Below are positions 9,223 through 55,036 of a stretch of DNA of 63,972 bases, one piece after another. A program made the translations under genes and the position numbers. The DNA lies in the NCBI GenBank assembly GCA_037443845.1, contig JBBINO010000002.1:26468-90439 (forward strand). Reading direction: 5' to 3'. Below the pieces are notes generated by a model. It was not told the DNA's origin, searched no databases, and saw nothing but the letters and a program-made list of their open reading frames with translations. The stretch's first letter is position 1; the number at the start of each line of letters is the position of its first letter. The DNA comes from Acidobacteriota bacterium. Lineage in GTDB: Bacteria > Acidobacteriota > UBA4820 > DSQY01.

Positions 9223-10281
9223 CTATTCCCCCATCTTTCGAAGGGCCAGGCCCACGGCGACGGCAAAACTCGGGGCCAGGCGGTTAATGGTGTCGACCGG
9301 GAACTCCCGCTCTGAAACCGTTATATTCTGGAACGGGTTCATGATTTCCACTGGAATCCCGAAGAACTGCGAGAGGTAACGGTCGAGGTTAGGGACTTTG
9401 GTCCCTCCGCCGGACAGAATGACTTTGTGGATGGTGTTCTCGCCGGTAGTCACCCTGAAAAAGTCAATGGTCTTCTTCAGTTCGGCGCCAAACTCCTCGG
9501 TCACGGCATTCAGAATGGGTACCGCCTGCTCGGCGCGGACGCCTTCCGATCCTTCGCCCTTCTTGATCGCTTCCGCCTGGTCGAAGGTCAGGCTCATCTC
9601 GCGCTGCAGGGTATCGGTGTAGTTGTTTCCACCGGCTTGAATGTCGCGCCAGAAGAGAGGCGTCGTCCCCTTCATGACGCTGAGGTTCGTCGTGCTGGCG
9701 CCCACGTTGACGAGCACGGTAACCTCGTTGCCATTGATGGGATAGTTGTTTTCGTAAGCGTTCTGGACGCAGAAGGAGTCAATGTCAATCGCCGAGGCGT
9801 TAAGCCCGGCCTGCCCCAGGATGGAGGAATACTCGCCGATCAGATCCCGCTTGGCGGCCACCAGGAGGACGTTAAGATTGCCCGTGGCGGGATCACTGTC
9901 CAGGACCTGGTGGTCAATCTTGACCTCCTCCAGGTCGAAGGGGATGTACTGGCCCGCCTCCCACTGGATGGCCTCGGCAAGCTCCGCCTCGCTCATGGCG
10001 GTCATCGTGATCCGCTTCGTGATCACGGAGTTGCCATCCACGGAGGTCGCGGCATTGAAGTTCTTGACCCCTCCCTCCCTTACGAGCTTCTGGATGGCGG
10101 CTATGACGGCGCCGGAGTCCATCACGGTCCCGCCGACCACGGCTTCAGGGGGAAGCGGCTCTATGCCGAACGCCTCCAGCTTGAAACCCTTGCCCTTGCC
10201 TAGATCCTTGAGCTCCACCATCTTGACGGCGGAAGACCCAATGTCCAGTCCCAACAGGTTCTTGCTTTTTGAGAAGAACAC
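9223..10281 (-). CDS. pilM: PilM (actin-like ATPase of the T4P alignment complex)
   Basis: LGLDIGSSAVKMVEL..., VNVGASTTNLSV and ILSGGGTKVPNLDRYL are actin/FtsA-fold phosphate motifs. The start is GTG with a GGAAGGGGAG RBS. Confidence 0.92.
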   Translation of the reverse strand: MFFSKSKNLLGLDIGSSAVKMVELKDLGKGKGFKLEAFGIEPLPPEAVVGGTVMDSGAVIAAIQKLVREGGVKNFNAATSVDGNSVITKRITMTAMSEAELAEAIQWEAGQYIPFDLEEVKIDHQVLDSDPATGNLNVLLVAAKRDLIGEYSSILGQAGLNASAIDIDSFCVQNAYENNYPINGNEVTVLVNVGASTTNLSVMKGTTPLFWRDIQAGGNNYTDTLQREMSLTFDQAEAIKKGEGSEGVRAEQAVPILNAVTEEFGAELKKTIDFFRVTTGENTIHKVILSGGGTKVPNLDRYLSQFFGIPVEIMNPFQNITVSEREFPVDTINRLAPSFAVAVGLALRKMGE

Positions 10282-49067: not shown

Positions 49068-50349
49068 CTGGGGAAATATCTACGCCATCGTCAAGCGCGA
49101 ATTCCTCGAACGGGTCCGCAAAAAGTCGTTTCTCGTGACCACGCTTGTAACGCCGCTAATCTTCGGAGTCCTGATGTTCTTGCCGGTCATCCTGCAAGTC
49201 GTGCAGACGGGCAAGCCGGCTTCCGTCATGGTGCTCGACAAGACCGGGTGGGCGGGCAGCGCCGTAATCGCCGCCTCGGCGAAACCGCGTGGCGCCTCGT
49301 CCACGATCGAGGGCCAGGCAGAGCGCGGCGCGATGAACGCGGCCACCTTCAAGGCCGCGCCCGGTGATGCCAACCTTGACCAGATCAAAATTGAAATCGG
49401 GGACGGCAAGGTTGACGGGCTGCTCTTGCTCGAGAACGACCCATCGAACGAGTTGAAAGCAACCTATTACGGCCAGAACGTCTCCAACCCCCAGCTTTTG
49501 CAGATGCTTGACAGCCGCTTGAATTCAGCGCTCATGGAGCACCGCATCGAGGGCTTGGGCCTCGACAAGGCCCTCTCCGAGAAGCTGAAAGGGCGCGCTG
49601 AGGTTGAAACCATCAAAGTCGAGAAGGGGGGCAAGACGCGCAAGGGCTCGATCATGGACTTCCTGATGCCCATCGCCCTGGCGCTGGTAATCTACATGAT
49701 GATTATCATGTACGGCGTCGCCATCATGAACGGCGTGCTTGAAGAGAAGAACAACAAGGTTGTCGAAGTGATCCTTTCCGCGGCCCGGCCCTTCGAACTG
49801 ATGATGGGGAAGATAGCCGGAATAGCCGCCGTCGGCCTTCTGCAATACGCCATCTGGTTCGCCCTGGGCGCCGGCCTCTACCTGTCGAACCCCATGAACT
49901 TCCAGTCCCATGTCGAAGGCCCCATCATCAAGCCCCTCCAGTTGGCGCTGCTCGTACTCTACTTCCTTTTGGGGTTTATCTTCTATTCGAGCCTTTACGC
50001 GGCCGTGGGCGCCACTTGCACCACGCAGCAGGAGACTCAGCAGTGGCAGATGCCCATAACCTTCGGCTTGGTCATACCCTTCGTTCTCATGATGCCAACG
50101 CTCCAAACGCCGAACGCGTCGTGGGTAGTCTTCCTGAGCCTTTTCCCGGTTTCCTCTCCCATCACGATGCTGTTGCGCACTGGAGCGGTGGAAGTCCCCT
50201 ACTGGCAGCTCGCGGCAAGCCTGGCGCTTTTGGTTTTTGGAACAGTCGCCGTAGCGTGGGCGGCGGCCAAGGTTTACCGCGTCGGCATCTTGATGACGGG
50301 CAAGCGTCCGAGCATACCCGAAATTATCCGCTGGATACGCCAAGCCTGA
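49057..50349 (+). CDS. ABC-2 family permease (NatB-like)
   Basis: The ATG at 49057 follows GGGGGAGG and overlaps natA by 11 nt. The product has an N-terminal TM segment, a large extracytoplasmic loop and 5 C-terminal TM helices, which is ABC-2 type topology. The last 29 codons plus the stop form the left copy of the 88-bp direct repeat. Confidence 0.85.
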   Translation: MRTDWGNIYAIVKREFLERVRKKSFLVTTLVTPLIFGVLMFLPVILQVVQTGKPASVMVLDKTGWAGSAVIAASAKPRGASSTIEGQAERGAMNAATFKAAPGDANLDQIKIEIGDGKVDGLLLLENDPSNELKATYYGQNVSNPQLLQMLDSRLNSALMEHRIEGLGLDKALSEKLKGRAEVETIKVEKGGKTRKGSIMDFLMPIALALVIYMMIIMYGVAIMNGVLEEKNNKVVEVILSAARPFELMMGKIAGIAAVGLLQYAIWFALGAGLYLSNPMNFQSHVEGPIIKPLQLALLVLYFLLGFIFYSSLYAAVGATCTTQQETQQWQMPITFGLVIPFVLMMPTLQTPNASWVVFLSLFPVSSPITMLLRTGAVEVPYWQLAASLALLVFGTVAVAWAAAKVYRVGILMTGKRPSIPEIIRWIRQA

Positions 50350-50350
50350 G
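50263..50350 (+). repeat. left copy of perfect 88-bp direct repeat (putative attL)
   Basis: I compared this base by base with 54771-54858: GCGGCCAAGGTTTACCGCGTCGGCATCTTGATGACGGGCAAGCGTCCGAGCATACCCGAAATTATCCGCTGGATACGCCAAGCCTGAG. I saw no mismatch. Confidence 0.92.
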
Positions 50351-50561: not shown

Positions 50562-50911
50562 ATTTGGATGAGTGGGGAGGATCGCGGCGGTCGTTGGCCT
50601 GTTGAACCAAACAAGCGGCATGGAGCTTATGATTGAGTTTTGGAATCTGGTACTCTAGCAAGCTCGCTCCGCGGTCCGCGTTGCTCACGTGCTACGCGAC
50701 TGCTCGCCTTCGCGGGCGGGGCATATCCCCCCCCCCCCGCAGGGGGGCCCTGTGGGAACCCACAGCGGCTCCCTGCGACAGGCTACGGGGAATAGGAAGT
50801 ATCTCGTCCACAAATGGCCTCTCTAGGGGGCCCCCTTTGCAAAGTAGAAGCATGCGGGATCCCGTTGTTCTTCAAGAAAGGCATTCACCAAGCGAAAAAG
50901 GAGGGTAAATC

Positions 50912-51790
50912 ATGAATTTAAAAGGACGTTCAATCTGGACTCTCTGCTTATGCTTGCTGGCTATTTCCATTCCCTTCTTGGCCATGAAATGTAGCGCTTC
51001 AGCAAGTGCCAAGGTTACACACGACTGGCAGTGCCACCAGGGAACAGAGGTCGGGGGGAGCGTTACTGGCAGCTGGCTTGTGGAGCCCAATCTTTCCGAG
51101 GTAGGTATCGTCGTAGTTCCTCCCAGTTGGTTGGAGTACCAGGACGTCAGTTCTCAAGCCACACTGTCGTTGCAGGGGCAAGACGCCTCCGGCAACACGA
51201 TTATCCAAACTGTAGTAATGCCATTAGCGGCTCCAGGAAGGAATGTTGTGGCGCCGTCACCGGGCTCGCTCAGTTATGACTTGACACCTACCGCCGACCA
51301 GCAAAACAGCTATAACAGTTTCACAGCAGCCGTTGAGCCATCGAGTTCGGTTGATTTCACGTGCAATTTCTCTGTTGGGGATGAGCGAATTCTCCAACTG
51401 TCAAGGGCTGTGTATCAACCCTATAGCGTCCAAGTGAGCATTTACAAGGCCGGGACGGATGTAGGCGACTTCACTCTCACGCAATCGCTTTCCGCAATTT
51501 GGAAAGGGTATTTGCTTTCAGCAATTTCTCAGGTTCCCCCGCAGGCTTGGGCTACTGGCAAGCCATTCAAGCCCACGTACCAGACCTTGCTTCAAAACGC
51601 CGTCAGACAAAGCATGGCCGAATGGGATGGGGAGGATCCAGTTTCCGCTAACCGGAATCTGCTCATCGCTATGGATCACCTGAATCAATATATTTCGGAT
51701 CCTGCACAGAGGGACAACTTGTACAGCATTTTCCTTAAGGTGCAGCAGCACGTGCAGAACGTCGCCAGTAGAGTGCCCGAGACCCCATGA
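50912..51790 (+). CDS. secreted hypothetical protein (islet cassette gene 1)
   Basis: An AAGGAGG RBS sits 7 nt upstream. The signal peptide is IWTLCLCLLAISIPFLAMKCSASASA. The N-terminal half is beta-rich and the C-terminal half is helical. I recognise no family. G+C is low. Confidence 0.65.
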   Translation: MNLKGRSIWTLCLCLLAISIPFLAMKCSASASAKVTHDWQCHQGTEVGGSVTGSWLVEPNLSEVGIVVVPPSWLEYQDVSSQATLSLQGQDASGNTIIQTVVMPLAAPGRNVVAPSPGSLSYDLTPTADQQNSYNSFTAAVEPSSSVDFTCNFSVGDERILQLSRAVYQPYSVQVSIYKAGTDVGDFTLTQSLSAIWKGYLLSAISQVPPQAWATGKPFKPTYQTLLQNAVRQSMAEWDGEDPVSANRNLLIAMDHLNQYISDPAQRDNLYSIFLKVQQHVQNVASRVPETP

Positions 51791-52944
51791 ATCCTTGCGT
51801 ACATAAGAGTAGCCTAAAGGCGGGGGGCACGGCCCCCCGCCTCGTCTGGCAACCAATACAACTGCTCTTATGCCTCATTCTGGTTGGGACAATGGCGTCT
51901 TGCGCAACTCATTTTGCGCATCTTGCAGACAGGGGGCCCAAATCCATGGATGGCGAGAGTGGTTCAGCTTCCACCGACATCACCAAGCTTGCGTTGGAGA
52001 ACTGTCACCCCGTTTATTCCGAGACAATGCGTAACGGCAAGGAGTTGAGGGTCTTTGCTTCGGATGGCTTTCATCTAAATTATCCGGCGCTATTAGCCGA
52101 CTGCAATCGCATGATGGAAGTCCTCGCGGAATTCTCGCCTCGACCGCTTCAGAAAAACCTTGCCCTTTTCTATTTTGCCACCGACAAGGCTCCGGACGGC
52201 TGGCGCTGGTCCATGCCGGTGACTGATACGGTGAACTTCATATTGGTTTTTTCGAATGGCCAGGGAAATAGCGACAAGCCGAGTTTCGGCGCAGACAAGG
52301 GCCATGACTGGAACACCACCTCAGGGGAGTGCGCCATTGCGGGGTTCCTCTGCCATGAGTTGACGCATCTTGTTGCTCCGGTCTTCTTCATGAACGCTCG
52401 CGGGATGATGCACCGGCACGCGGGGAGTGGCTGGTTCGGGGAAGGCTTGGCGGAGTACGCAAACTACCTAGCTTGGGATGGAAGCGACCTTTGCACTTGG
52501 CAGAGGGCGGACGCTTCCTTCGCGCTTCTGGCGTTTGAAGATCGATCCCGGCGGAAGCATCTTTGGCGCTGGCAATCCGGGATCAAAAATGACTGGAATG
52601 CGTATGCGGCGAATAATAACGGAGAGGAACATCCGACTTGGCCGGATATCACGAGCGCCTCCCGAGCCACATTTATGGCCCCCGACTACACCACGGCACT
52701 CGGAGCTTTTCTCTTTATGGAACGGATAAAAGGGCGGAAGGAACTGCTGGAGAGCATTCAGCGTATCGTCGCCGGGCAACACTTCCAGGGGCAATCTTTC
52801 TATGACAGCCTCCATAGAGAACTAGGCTTTGATATACGGGAAATCACGTCAAAAGAGATACGTCAGATGGCCGCATGTGCCAACCGGGACGGTTCCTGCT
52901 CTGGTTCGCCAATATTTCCCGAAGGCGGCAAAACTAGGGAATGA
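51787..52944 (+). CDS. lipoprotein-type zinc metallopeptidase, gluzincin / peptidase-MA-like (islet cassette gene 2)
   Basis: It overlaps gene 1 as ATGA. The lipobox-like sequence is LILVGTMASC. HELTH (an HExxH motif) is followed 23 residues later by WFGEGLAEYANY. That HExxH...EGxAEY arrangement is characteristic of MA-clan (Peptidase_MA_2-type) domains. Confidence 0.62.
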   Translation: MNPCVHKSSLKAGGTAPRLVWQPIQLLLCLILVGTMASCATHFAHLADRGPKSMDGESGSASTDITKLALENCHPVYSETMRNGKELRVFASDGFHLNYPALLADCNRMMEVLAEFSPRPLQKNLALFYFATDKAPDGWRWSMPVTDTVNFILVFSNGQGNSDKPSFGADKGHDWNTTSGECAIAGFLCHELTHLVAPVFFMNARGMMHRHAGSGWFGEGLAEYANYLAWDGSDLCTWQRADASFALLAFEDRSRRKHLWRWQSGIKNDWNAYAANNNGEEHPTWPDITSASRATFMAPDYTTALGAFLFMERIKGRKELLESIQRIVAGQHFQGQSFYDSLHRELGFDIREITSKEIRQMAACANRDGSCSGSPIFPEGGKTRE

Positions 52945-53465
52945 AAATGCTATCCTACGCTCCGCCGCATTTTCGGGGTCTCTCTATACTATGCGGGATG
53001 GGAGCTTCCCTTTTTTCTTGTCAGTTTCTTTCTCTCTGGATGCAATATCTAACGCGCTACAAGCCTGCCATGACGCTTGGCAATTGGTTCTTATGGGGAC
53101 GGGTTCTTAGCAAGGGATTCTTAGTGGCGAACATCTTTCCCAACACTAGAGTCTGGCAGGAAGCTTCACGAACGTTTTTCTTGGCAATCGCCTGCTTTGC
53201 TGCTTTCGTCGTATGGAGGCGCACCAGGAAGAATCTGGACTGCGTCTTTCTTGGAGTGTCGTTGGGAGCGGCCACATCTACCCTTGTGGATTTACTCCGT
53301 TTGGGGGCCGTAGTTGACTATTGGCTTCTGCATGTCCCTTCCCTTGGGTTTGCGGTCGCCTTCAACCTCCCAGACATACTCATTTCGATGGCCACCCTCC
53401 TGCTAGCATTTCGTCTTTCGTGTAAGAAGGTTGTGCCCAGCGATGATCACACCACCAGTGAATGA
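52941..53465 (+). CDS. divergent signal peptidase II (LspA, A8 aspartic peptidase)-like membrane protein (islet cassette gene 3)
   Basis: It overlaps gene 2 as ATGA and has about 4 TM helices. The C-terminal half LGVSLGAATSTLVDLLRLGAVVDYWLLHVPSLGFAVAFNLPDILISMATLLL aligns by eye to E. coli LspA [47 protein letters not shown]. Both Asp positions are retained (xLxD and FNLxD). The N-terminal N-x-G-A-A-F box is degenerate (SKGFLVANIF). Confidence 0.45.
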   Translation: MKMLSYAPPHFRGLSILCGMGASLFSCQFLSLWMQYLTRYKPAMTLGNWFLWGRVLSKGFLVANIFPNTRVWQEASRTFFLAIACFAAFVVWRRTRKNLDCVFLGVSLGAATSTLVDLLRLGAVVDYWLLHVPSLGFAVAFNLPDILISMATLLLAFRLSCKKVVPSDDHTTSE

Positions 53466-53915
53466 GGGTAGCAGAGGCAATGCTATGCCCTTGACTGCGT
53501 GTTTAGGGAGCGATACCTGTGCCGCAGGTGGGTTGTTTGAAAGACCGGTAGGTTGCTGGTGAGCGGGGGAGGCTCATTGGGGCGTTGCGTTGATGCGGTT
53601 GCAAATTCGCGGCGCTTGTCCGCCCTTGGCGGGAGGGGCGCGTCTCTCTTCGCGAGCGGTGCGCTTGGTGATCGCAGGGAGACGTCCAGCGCTCCTGGCC
53701 GCTCCGTCATGACTCCTACTCGTCGTTTCGTGATCTTTGCCGGCTTTGGGGCGGCTGGTGACGGCATGGCTGAGGTTCCTAACTGGCTTTCGGTTGTTCC
53801 GGCTTGTTCGTTCGCTCTTCCTACTGTAGTGTCTCTGAATCGAGTTTACCTGTTTGATCCACCATGTGCAGATATCTTAGGCTGTCATGCCGGTCAAGCT
53901 ATTTGCGAGACACTA

Positions 53916-54204
53916 CACTACCGGCCCGATTGAAGCTCCTACGCGGCCATCCGTTGTCCCTACGCGCCTTTCTATCGCTCCTTCCGGCTGTTTCAGGACT
54001 CCTGCGATGGTAGGAAGGGCGGGCGGGCCTGTAGGGATGATGGACGGCCTTGTAGGAATTATGAGAAGGTTCGTAGGAGCCATAAGCGGGCCAGCGGGAA
54101 CACCAAACAGGCTTGTAGGAATGCCAGGCGTGCCGGTAGGAAGTTCAGGCTGGCATGTAGGAATGACGAAATGGCCTGTAGGACGCACAAACGTCCCGGT
54201 TGAA
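53916..54204. repeat. strictly 21-bp-phased array of a TGTAGGA(A/G) core: about 9 copies in one orientation abutting about 4 inverted copies
   Basis: GTAGGA-type cores start at 54010, 54031, 54052, 54073, 54094 (degenerate GCGGGA), 54115, 54136, 54157 and 54178. Inverted TCCTAC-type cores start at 53937, 53958, 53979 and 54000, with a weak one at 53916. The arrays meet at TCCTGC-GATG-GTAGGA. Confidence 0.85.
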
Positions 54205-54329
54205 AGGTTGAACGTCCATCGAGAAATCTCTTATGTCTCGGCCCGGTCGGCGGGCTGGGGTCTGCCGTTTCAAGTCGTGCCAGAGGGTTTGTTTCATTGG
54301 GCCAGTTTTTCGGAGAGGAGGTTGTGCAG

Positions 54330-54857
54330 ATGTCGAAACCGAAGTCGGGAATTTCGGAGAGGCTTGGCGGAGCGAACGTGGGGATATCGAACACGATGCC
54401 GGCTCCGATTCCGCTCTTCCTGATGATGGCGGCCGCGCTTTTCGACAACGCCAGCCACACCGAGGCCATCGCCGCGCGGCTCGCCGATTTCGGGTACACC
54501 CAGCAGAAGCTTTCGGACGAGCGGTCGAAGATAGCGGAGATGTCCGCCGCCGTCGCGGCCCACGAGTCGGCTTCGGGGGCGGCCCAGCAGGCCACCTTCG
54601 AGCAGAACCGCGCGATGGAGGCGCTCGGCTCCTGGATGAGCACCTTCGTGAAGGTCGCGAAGGTGGCCCTCAGAGAAGAGCCCCAGCTTCTCGAAAGGCT
54701 CGGTATTCTCAAGCGCAACGGCAAGACTGCCGCGCAGCGCAAGGCGTCCTCCAGAACCGCCGCGACCCGCGCGGCCAAGGTTTACCGCGTCGGCATCTTG
54801 ATGACGGGCAAGCGTCCGAGCATACCCGAAATTATCCGCTGGATACGCCAAGCCTGA
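54330..54857 (+). CDS. hypothetical helical protein whose last 29 codons lie in the right 88-bp repeat (C-terminus identical to the ABC-2 permease)
   Basis: A GGAGAGGAGG RBS lies 9 nt before ATG 54330. The body is Ala/Glu/Gln-rich and helical ([28 protein letters not shown]...[26 protein letters not shown]). G+C matches the backbone. The tail [28 protein letters not shown] is identical to the permease tail. Confidence 0.5.
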
Positions 54858-54858
54858 G
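54771..54858 (+). repeat. right copy of perfect 88-bp direct repeat (putative attR; displaced original 3' end of the permease gene)
   Basis: It is identical to 50263-50350. Confidence 0.92.
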
Positions 54859-54864
54859 CCGGCC

Positions 54865-54895
54865 GAGCCCATCCCCTTCCCGGGATGGGCTCTTT
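54865..54895 (+). terminator. rho-independent terminator-like hairpin right after the right repeat
   Basis: GAGCCCATCC-CCTTCCCG-GGATGGGCTC is a 10-bp stem followed by TTTG. It starts 7 nt after the repeat ends. Confidence 0.6.
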
Positions 54896-55036
54896 GCCCC
54901 GCCCTGTTTGGGCGCCACCCGCTCCGATTGACAGCGGCCCGCCCCGAAGATATATTTCGATCATAGGGGTTTGTTCGCTCGCAGTTCTGCCGGTCTTGTT
55001 TTGCCTGCGCGGGAAGACATTCAGGGAGGTGCCGCA

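Follow-up and report, generated by a model that had tools for sequence, protein, structure and literature searches.

A phased array of many sites together with a cognate protein is a known general type of system. The stbS locus of plasmid R388 is a short direct repeat array upstream of the gene of its binder. Repeats of the ToxI type are near-identical units of ~35 nt, all in direct orientation; a terminator precedes the toxin gene, and the toxin, an endoribonuclease, cleaves their transcript. Ribbon-helix-helix proteins such as omega read DNA through alternating residues of the N-terminal strand. The parC locus of plasmid R1 consists of two sets of five 11-bp iterons flanking a promoter, and ParR binds them cooperatively, with approximately one dimer per repeat, and autorepresses (PMC2241845). 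The parS sites of pSM19035 are formed by 7-10 contiguous, non-palindromic 7-bp heptads in mixed orientation that lie over promoters; one omega dimer binds each heptad, with low affinity at a single site and cooperatively at multiple sites (PMC9499535). StbA of R388 is reported to need no plasmid-encoded NTPase and to be also a regulator (bioRxiv 10.1101/2022.04.29.490116). Here we analyze a 63,972-nucleotide stretch of contig JBBINO010000002.1 of an Acidobacteriota bacterium (GenBank assembly GCA_037443845.1), referred to as the window, in which an array of short cores repeated every 21 bp lies upstream of a gene encoding a PQLLE-family protein. The pairing of such arrays with PQLLE genes is conserved and apparently was not described before, and the array is likely a binding platform for the protein encoded downstream.

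Array of phased cores in the window

The array lies in the 860-bp gap between an LspA-like gene (52941-53465) and a 175-aa open reading frame (ORF) at 54330-54857. Its elements and the downstream gene are as follows.

54003 to 54204, + strand: right (gene-proximal) arm of nine 21-bp units, with cores at 54010, 54031 (GTAGGG), 54052, 54073, 54094 (GCGGGA), 54115, 54136, 54157, and 54178
53930 to 54006, - strand: left (distal) arm of four 21-bp units in reverse polarity, reading on the + strand TCCTAC (53937), CCCTAC (53958), TCCTTC (53979), and TCCTGC (54000)
54000 to 54015, no strand: junction of the arms, TCCTGC-GATG-GTAGGA, an imperfect palindrome, identified by direct reading
53714 to 53824, - strand: three extra reverse cores, TCCTAC (53714), TCCTAA (53777), and TCCTAC (53819)
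54205 to 54329, + strand: 125-bp spacer between the last array unit and the start codon, with the Shine-Dalgarno-like sequence GGAGAGGAGG at 54312-54321
54330 to 54857, + strand: truncated PQLLE-family gene of 175 aa, identified by codon-position GC content, the NF052641 match, and alignment

Hexamers of the GTAGGA type start on the + strand at 54010+21n for n = 0-8, seven of them exact, with GTAGGG at n = 1 and the degenerate GCGGGA at n = 4; the cores of the right arm thus read GTAGGA on the sense strand of the downstream gene. An earlier note on this DNA had described about nine cores in 21-bp period facing about four inverted copies, with the head-to-head junction given above, and both direct reading and a script confirmed this layout. 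The two isolated copies that it had listed further to the left, CTCCTAC at 53713 and TCCTAC at 53819, are also present, and TCCTAA at 53777 is to be added to them. The three extra reverse cores are spaced by 63 and 42 bp, being in 21-bp phase with each other and 8 bp off the phase of the main left arm. They are probably a decayed continuation of this arm, whose intact form is seen in two related loci, L011 and L012. A candidate fifth unit of the left arm at 53916 has two mismatches and is doubtful.

The array is far from chance. Seven of the 16 exact + strand copies of GTAGGA in the entire window fall within the 170 bp of the array, and the window contains eight in-phase cores (with at most one mismatch), whereas the maximum in 100 window shuffles averaged 2.1 and did not exceed three. 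A tandem-repeat search, which the earlier note had suggested as a check, did not recover the array: Tandem Repeats Finder applied to positions 53000-55000 made no report there, since only the core of 6-7 bp and a weak GGCC-like flank are retained in the units and the other ~14 bp are variable. At the gathering thresholds of Rfam, the sole match in the window is a tRNA-Val elsewhere, with nothing at the array. The GC content of the array region is 55-58%.

Conservation of the array upstream of PQLLE genes

Scanning one genome per species yielded 80 PQLLE loci, numbered with the prefix L, from at least eight phyla. The groups represented include Acidobacteriota, Chloroflexota, Bacteroidota, Ignavibacteria, Calditrichota, Armatimonadota, KSB1, Verrucomicrobiota, and Planctomycetia. 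Cultured strains account for three of the loci (Mariniphaga anaerophila, Carboxylicivirga marina, and Sunxiuqinia dokdonensis DH1, the last being L078), and several metagenome-assembled genomes (MAGs) hold multiple PQLLE copies. The contigs that carry the genes are long and chromosomal, reaching 11 Mb. A profile search with the family resulted in 3,265 representative clusters, defined at 50% identity, at E <= 1e-3.

A phased array was called when, in the 800 bp preceding the gene, the 5-mer autocorrelation peaked at a lag of 20, 21, 41, or 42 bp and gave 15 or more matches. By this measure, arrays precede the PQLLE gene in 61 of the 73 loci that have enough upstream sequence, versus 3 of 256 control windows taken from the same loci. 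The class was defined as eight or more short cores repeating every 20/21 bp (or 41/42 bp) in the ~600 bp before a PQLLE gene, and the array of the window, with its 9 + 4 cores, belongs to it. The number of phased cores per array ranges from 8 to 29, with a median of 14; the Bacteroidota locus L020, for example, has 15 units of very regular spacing. The earlier note had placed all sites on one face of the DNA helix, and the recurrence of phased arrays upstream of homologous genes in many phyla supports this view.

The cores of different loci belong to one motif family, x1x2AGx5AA, exemplified by GTAGGAA, GTAGCAA, CAAGCAA, TAAGGAA, GGAGCAA, and TGAGGAA. In many loci of Chloroflexota and Bacteroidota, a second submotif (GTAAC, GCAAC, or TTGTAA) is found 2 bp upstream of the core, forming a composite unit with a site of ~14 bp and ~7 bp of filler per 21 bp. 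Two opposed arms with a palindromic junction are typical of the Acidobacteriota clade that includes the window; in other groups, the array usually has one arm only, whose core is on the sense strand. Near-perfect palindromic junctions occur in relatives, for instance GCTACCGTGGTAGC in L008 and TTCCTACTTCGGTAGGAA in L012. The distance from the end of the right arm to the start codon is about 125-150 bp in the window, and its median across the loci is ~115 bp.

Two further features of individual arrays were observed. At positions 2611-2760 of L012, past eight TTCCTAC units, the left arm adds five TTGCTTC units. The latter are the reverse complement of GAAGCAA, a core of the type found in other Acidobacteriota PQLLE loci, and thus two core types are combined in one array. 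In the GTAGGAA clade of Bacteroidota and Ignavibacteria, the gap of 200-400 bp between the array and the start codon contains a strong hairpin (TCAGTCT...AGACTGA), located at 5850-5895 in L020 and likewise at approximately -133 to -99 from the start codon in L018.

The PQLLE-family protein

The 175-aa gene of the window has a strong coding signature and host-like codon usage, with a GC content of 0.59, 0.51, and 0.86 in codon positions 1, 2, and 3, respectively. Its product belongs to the NCBIfam family NF052641 ("PQLLE family protein"), with a score of 84.1 bits (E = 1.1e-23, cut-off 80); full-length homologs score 105-249 bits. The C-terminal motif PQLLEK[LI]G is represented by PQLLERLG. The homologs are about 215-250 aa long and consist of two homologous helical domains. 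The window protein matches only positions 103-211 of the 211-position profile, and by alignment it has lost ~90 residues comprising the first domain and has kept the second one; the complete two-domain architecture is therefore absent here. The N-terminal arm M-S-K-P-K-S-G-I is retained, and the last 28 codons and the stop codon derive from the duplicated 3' end of an ABC-2 permease gene. This gene either has suffered a recent in-frame deletion of ~90 codons or encodes a one-domain variant that still works.

The AlphaFold2 model of the PQLLE protein has a pLDDT (predicted local distance difference test) score of 89.6 and is all-helical, with two repeats containing a 56-residue helix each and eight disordered residues at the N-terminus. 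No informative matches of the protein were found in Pfam, PHROGs, PADLOC, or by a PDB sequence search, and comparison of the model with the PDB by Foldseek returned only generic helical bundles (best E-value 0.026). Our literature search found nothing on the family, as the string "PQLLE" matches only unrelated peptides.

Covariation of the protein arm and the core

In 33 loci with cleanly defined cores, we compared every column of the protein alignment with every position of the 21-bp unit consensus. Positions of the arm were counted back from the conserved Ile at the start of the I-[AS]-x-[RQ]-L helix. The top-ranked pair is arm residue -5 and core base 5: Arg accompanies C in all 16 loci with Arg, and Lys accompanies G in 16 of 17 (first-pass Fisher p = 2e-7). 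Thus the Lys/Arg rule holds in 32 of the 33 loci, and the remaining one is an alignment gap. The core of L042, upon inspection, is TGAGGAA and fits the Lys-G pairing. Arm residue -3 tracks core bases 1-2, with Lys corresponding to G-T or G-A, Met to C-A, Val to T-A, and His to G-G or T-G. The window obeys the rule, having the arm K-P-K and the core GTAGGA(a).

On a neighbor-joining tree constructed with the arm excluded, arm residue -5 switches ~10 times and core base 5 ~9 times, in coincidence with each other, which makes ~9 independent co-switches. For instance, one MAG holds both L029 and L030, which share the GAGTAAC flank and are 92% identical apart from the arm, but the arm R-P-K goes with GTAGCAA in L029, and K-P-V with TAAGGAA in L030. 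Similarly, L011, with K and GTAGGAA, is nearer to L004, with R and CAAGCAA, than to L012, whose arm residue and core are those of L011. These patterns indicate that the covariation is more than shared ancestry. Any covariation of the second submotif with the second protein domain is confounded by clade structure.

In major-groove contacts, Lys, Arg, and His recognize guanine, and Val and Met recognize the methyl groups of thymine. The arm-core pairings follow this canonical major-groove readout: upon replacement of Lys by Arg together with the swap of G:C to C:G, a guanine stays contactable on one strand or the other. The two reader residues are two positions apart, as might be expected of a beta-strand lying in the groove in the ribbon-helix-helix style. 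In the AlphaFold2 model, which as a monomer cannot display a beta-ribbon, the arm is disordered, and no ribbon-helix-helix or helix-turn-helix domain was matched.

Proposed mechanism

From the array, its conservation, and the covariation of arm and core, all of which were computed, we infer physical binding: the array is probably a cis-acting platform of double-stranded DNA on which the PQLLE protein encoded downstream would occupy many sites on one face. PQLLE is the sole gene conserved across the loci and therefore the sole cis-encoded candidate for the cognate factor. The adjacent 175-aa protein had already been named as a possible binder in the earlier note, and the recurrence of the array with the family and the covariation argue for this candidate. 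Likewise, we consider it likely that the ligand is DNA in its double-stranded form.

Each 21-bp unit, that is, two helical turns, would present one 7-bp core x1-x2-A-G-x5-A-A, GTAGGA(A) in the window, to the short basic arm M-x-x-[K/R]-[P/S]-[K/M/V/H]-x-x-I. Arm residue -5 would pair with core base 5 (Lys with G, Arg with C), and residue -3 with bases 1-2. Since the spacing is an exact multiple of the helical repeat, the bound protomers would align on one DNA face, and if the protein is the elongated rod with two 56-residue helices that the model predicts, neighboring protomers could touch and form a filament. The opposed arms and palindromic junctions of the Acidobacteriota clade, the window included, suggest that a head-to-head pair nucleates assembly outward in both directions. 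The end of the array lies near the start codon, and therefore its occupancy would most simply feed back on transcription of the PQLLE gene. Thus, as judged from its position, the array probably serves for autoregulation, with a promoter presumably lying in the spacer at 54205-54329 or beneath the array. It is conceivable that the nucleoprotein filament has a larger role as an insulator, silencer, anchor, or defense-linked switch.

Several observations weigh against this interpretation. The PQLLE protein has no DNA-binding domain recognizable by Pfam, PDB sequence search, or Foldseek. Some family members, such as those of the cas9 loci described below, have no basic arm, and their arrays are weak, and L057 and L067 have no obvious arm and yet possess strong arrays. 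The window's own protein is truncated: with the first domain lost, the local module may be crippled, though its arm K-P-K and core GTAGGA still match. A scan of positions 53400-54450 for sigma-70 promoters and terminators found no promoter and a chance level of terminators, so that the argument for autoregulation is a positional one. Finally, two observations fit a transcribed array. The core of the gene-proximal arm is almost always on the sense strand, and in L004, L009, and L010 a terminator-like hairpin that separates the array from the ribosome-binding site was seen by eye. The covariation of arm and core does not discriminate by itself, being equally compatible with an RNA copy of the array being read.

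Double-stranded DNA or RNA as the ligand

The strand bias and the hairpin speak for the best of the alternatives, an RNA-level module similar to a type III toxin-antitoxin system or a sponge, with which the covariation is also compatible. In such a module, a transcribed (GUAGGA N15)n RNA would bind the PQLLE protein, sequester it, or be processed by it, and the helical period would be merely a fixed length of the RNA unit. The location of the array directly upstream of a stand-alone gene and on the same strand would suit it, as would the variable or defense-rich surroundings with AbiJ, restriction-modification, and Cas genes, and the array of the window folds better than its shuffles (z = -5.6). 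We nevertheless consider this explanation unlikely. The terminator is not a general feature, being found by a strict scan on the sense strand in 3 of the 80 loci, versus 12 on the antisense strand, and being absent from the window. Arms in reverse orientation would yield a different RNA, and the gap of 2-4 nt in the palindromes is too short for a hairpin loop. In many arrays, only ~7 of 21 nt are kept, unlike repeats of the ToxI type. The alternation of 20 and 21 bp fits B-DNA phasing, and the period stays at approximately two helical turns across phyla while the filler varies. Moreover, the Lys-G and Arg-C pairs are what would be expected if guanines on opposite strands of a duplex were contacted. 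There is no match in Rfam or PADLOC, and no endoribonuclease toxin of the ToxN, AbiQ, or CptN family was matched in PADLOC, Pfam, or NCBIfam beyond the PQLLE assignment itself.

We also considered, and rejected, that the two arms pair into a long RNA hairpin or a cruciform. The 9-14 matches per 21 bp between the arms in eight two-armed loci reflect the shared consensus of the units, which alone explains the mirror complementarity of the arms, and not a selected structure.

In L004, the hairpin ACGGG-TAAG-CCCGT followed by TTTTTCCTTTT is located at 9955-9990, right before the ribosome-binding site of the PQLLE gene, and L009 and L010 have its equivalents. As no co-directional gene lies upstream in L004, a transcript in this subclade should start in or before the array.

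The islet carrying the array

In the window, the array and the PQLLE gene are situated at the end of a 4.5-kb islet, which has lower GC content and lower GC content in third codon positions (GC3) and is enclosed by a perfect direct repeat.

50263 to 50350, + strand: left copy of the 88-bp perfect direct repeat, the 3' end of the ABC-2 permease gene with the stop codon
54771 to 54858, + strand: right copy of the repeat, joined in frame to the PQLLE gene after ...ATRAAK

The fusion boundary of the right copy falls on a shared GCGGCCAAG (Ala-Ala-Lys) microhomology. The junctions of the islet could also be an assembly artifact. The cargo of the islet, at 50912-53465, consists of three co-directional, foreign-looking genes with overlapping stop and start codons. 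The first encodes a secreted protein of 292 aa with a signal-peptide-like N-terminus, the second a protein of 385 aa with a zinc-protease-like HExxH motif (HELTH) that was spotted by eye in the translation, and the third a divergent, LspA-like signal peptidase II (Peptidase_A8, E = 7e-11). A run of 12 C residues (GGGGCATATCCCCCCCCCCCCGCAGGGG), which could be a slippage-prone tract, is found at 50714-50745, ~170 bp upstream of the gene for the secreted protein.

The look-up of the LspA-like protein recovered a 3-kb Logan contig from SRR11582168 (L001) that is identical to positions 50727-53768 of the window and ends short of the array. No record was found by exact-protein look-ups of the 175-aa, 186-aa, and 178-aa ORFs and of the ABC-2 permease. 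In the closest relative recovered, L095, the ABC-2 permease gene is still followed by the cytochrome c peroxidase gene, but a different 1.3-kb insert lies between them, and the islet is therefore lineage-specific.

Genomic neighborhood and the replicon, partition, and recombination alternatives

An iteron origin, an incompatibility locus, or a partition centromere of a small integrated element bounded by the 88-bp repeats would also account for direct repeats phased at approximately two helical turns, as opposed sets of this kind resemble iteron and incA/incC layouts, and the islet with its direct repeat and lower GC content has the appearance of such an element. However, neither Rep nor ParA, ParM, or TubZ genes are present in the islet (by the ORF list and Pfam), and no such gene is conserved beside PQLLE genes. 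No conserved neighbor was found across the 80 loci beyond clade-specific Cas genes and an ORF similar to Y1 transposases. The nearest neighbors are heterogeneous, including restriction enzymes of types ISP/IIG, a methylase-Mrr fusion, AbiJ, integrases, and IS200-type transposases, as well as housekeeping genes, and the 25 most frequent of the 145 Pfam families for the 131 nearest-neighbor ORFs contain no Par NTPase (ParA, ParM, or TubZ). The PQLLE protein is not a winged-helix Rep, and neither it nor the ORFs of the islet match Rep families in Pfam, NCBIfam, or PHROGs. Furthermore, the PQLLE family has no match in 72,556 plasmids (PLSDB, tblastn), 50,697 phages (INPHARED, tblastn), or IMG/VR. 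Given the chromosomal contigs, the absence from plasmid and phage sets, and the lack of a partner, the array with its gene is a stand-alone chromosomal unit, often present in several copies with different specificities per genome. A replicon or partition function is thus largely refuted, and we regard it as very improbable.

Slightly less credible still is that the cores are arm-type sites of a factor that moves the 4.5-kb islet, either a recombinase or a recombination directionality factor. The array does lie near the end of the islet, and an 88-bp repeat over the 3' end of a gene resembles the layout of att sites, but the islet has no integrase or transposase. Elsewhere the array accompanies PQLLE genes, with integrases making up only 3 of the 131 nearest-neighbor ORFs and IS200-type Y1 transposases 2 of 131. 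At least 13 phased sites far exceed the known arm regions, and the covariation points to the PQLLE protein as the reader. Hence, among the analogies listed in the earlier note, that with a control array stands, while those with iteron origins, incompatibility or partition loci, and recombinase or directionality factor arms find no support.

In nine loci of Marinilabiliales (those listed being L063, L069, L073, L074, L075, L077, L082, and L086), the PQLLE gene is located between cas9 and cas1-cas2. The order of this type II CRISPR-Cas locus is cas9 - PQLLE - (207-aa ORF) - cas1 - cas2 - CRISPR array. These PQLLE copies lack the basic N-terminal arm, and the upstream arrays are weak or have a 20-bp period. 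No description of this locus type was found in the literature by a search that was itself uninformative. The 207-aa ORF (L075, 6676-7299; homologs in L069, L074, L082, and L063), which is often but not always present in these loci, shows weak similarity to REP-associated tyrosine (Y1) transposases, reaching 45.5 bits with NF047646, whose cut-off is 80.

Open reading frames across the array

The array is non-coding. The weakest alternative, a heptad-repeat protein encoded by the ORF 53887-54423 (+) or 53913-54188 (-), can be dismissed, although both frames are open across the array and gene callers annotate similar ORFs upstream of homologs (L002, L005, and L006), because periods of 20 and 41 bp in other loci make a periodic peptide impossible, the open frames are inconsistent, and the switch of orientation at the palindromic arm junctions is conserved as DNA. 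The array of L048 alternates 20 and 21 bp (41), those of L078 and L074 have a 20-bp period, and those of L084 and L016 mix 20 and 21 bp. In 28 of the 61 arrays there is no open frame at all; the remainder have several frames, or frames of either strand, open at once, as stop-free repeated units would give. The frames that run through the array of the window have no Pfam match, and their GC3, at 0.49-0.54, is lower than the GC content of codon positions 1 and 2; genuine genes of this region have 0.74-0.86. Both ORFs are present with the Pro-Thr/Val-Gly behavior of their frames. From the shift of Pro-Thr between the plus frame on the left and the minus frame on the right, the earlier note had argued that the constraint acts on the DNA and not on a protein. 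It had named a heptad peptide conserved in one frame across homologous loci as the observation that would speak for a protein; we looked for such a peptide, and none is conserved, so that its argument gains support. In annotation, ORFs across the array should not be called genes.

Implications for the PQLLE family

Returning to the binding platform, a bolder extension may be put forward tentatively, and we consider it more doubtful than probable. PQLLE proteins and their arrays may form an unrecognized, widespread class of sequence-programmable DNA-binding modules with an arm code of two to three residues, a one-face filament, and orthogonal copies in one genome, with one branch recruited between cas9 and cas1. 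The array would then be the self-address of a new chromosomal nucleoprotein device, and not an ordinary operator. The array and the arm provide a first functional handle on a large family known so far by name only (NF052641) and spread over many poorly studied phyla, and the proposed recognition rule is concrete and can be falsified by point mutants. If confirmed, it would represent a new DNA-binding architecture with swappable specificity, and would explain hundreds of odd "repeat ORFs" called upstream of PQLLE genes. It would also raise the question of why the modules are multi-copy and located in variable or defense regions and inside the cas9-cas1-cas2 operons of Marinilabiliales.

Comparison with known systems

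Among the systems introduced above, ParR-parC of R1 resembles the PQLLE arrays in having two sets of helically phased repeats just upstream of the operon of the binder. However, the R1 repeats are 11 bp apart and all direct, whereas the PQLLE arrays have a 21-bp period and 8-29 cores, and their arms may be opposed. ParR is a small ribbon-helix-helix protein of a plasmid that acts with the actin-like ATPase ParM; the PQLLE protein is a two-domain helical protein of a new fold with no NTPase partner, is encoded on the chromosome, and occurs in multiple copies. The omega system of pSM19035 shares with the PQLLE arrays the non-palindromic 7-bp core present in direct and inverted orientation near promoters, and the covarying arm residues -5 and -3 are likewise two positions apart. 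In contrast, the omega heptads are contiguous, with a 7-bp period, while the PQLLE cores are 21 bp apart with variable filler, and omega is a protein of ~71 aa that works with the delta ATPase. A ribbon-helix-helix arrangement of the PQLLE N-terminus is hypothetical.

Iteron origins (RepA, pi, and TrfA; incC/incA of P1) are similar in their repeats of ~17-22 bp phased at approximately two turns, in a specificity matched to the protein encoded in cis, and in the possibility of opposed sets, but PQLLE has neither an initiator fold nor a replicon context and is chromosomal, with several copies per genome. StbA is a helix-turn-helix protein of a conjugative plasmid, and no relation of it to PQLLE in sequence or fold was found. 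Type III toxin-antitoxin systems (ToxIN, AbiQ) also have a tandem array directly upstream of a single gene, are stand-alone, and reside in variable or defense regions; the PQLLE arrays differ in keeping the 7-bp core only, in arms that can be inverted, and in the terminator not being general. The PQLLE array thus does not show the features expected of an iteron origin, a partition centromere, or a type III toxin-antitoxin locus. It belongs to the same general type as these phased multi-site arrays with a cognate protein, and the PQLLE version is distinguished by its protein, its period, and its distribution.

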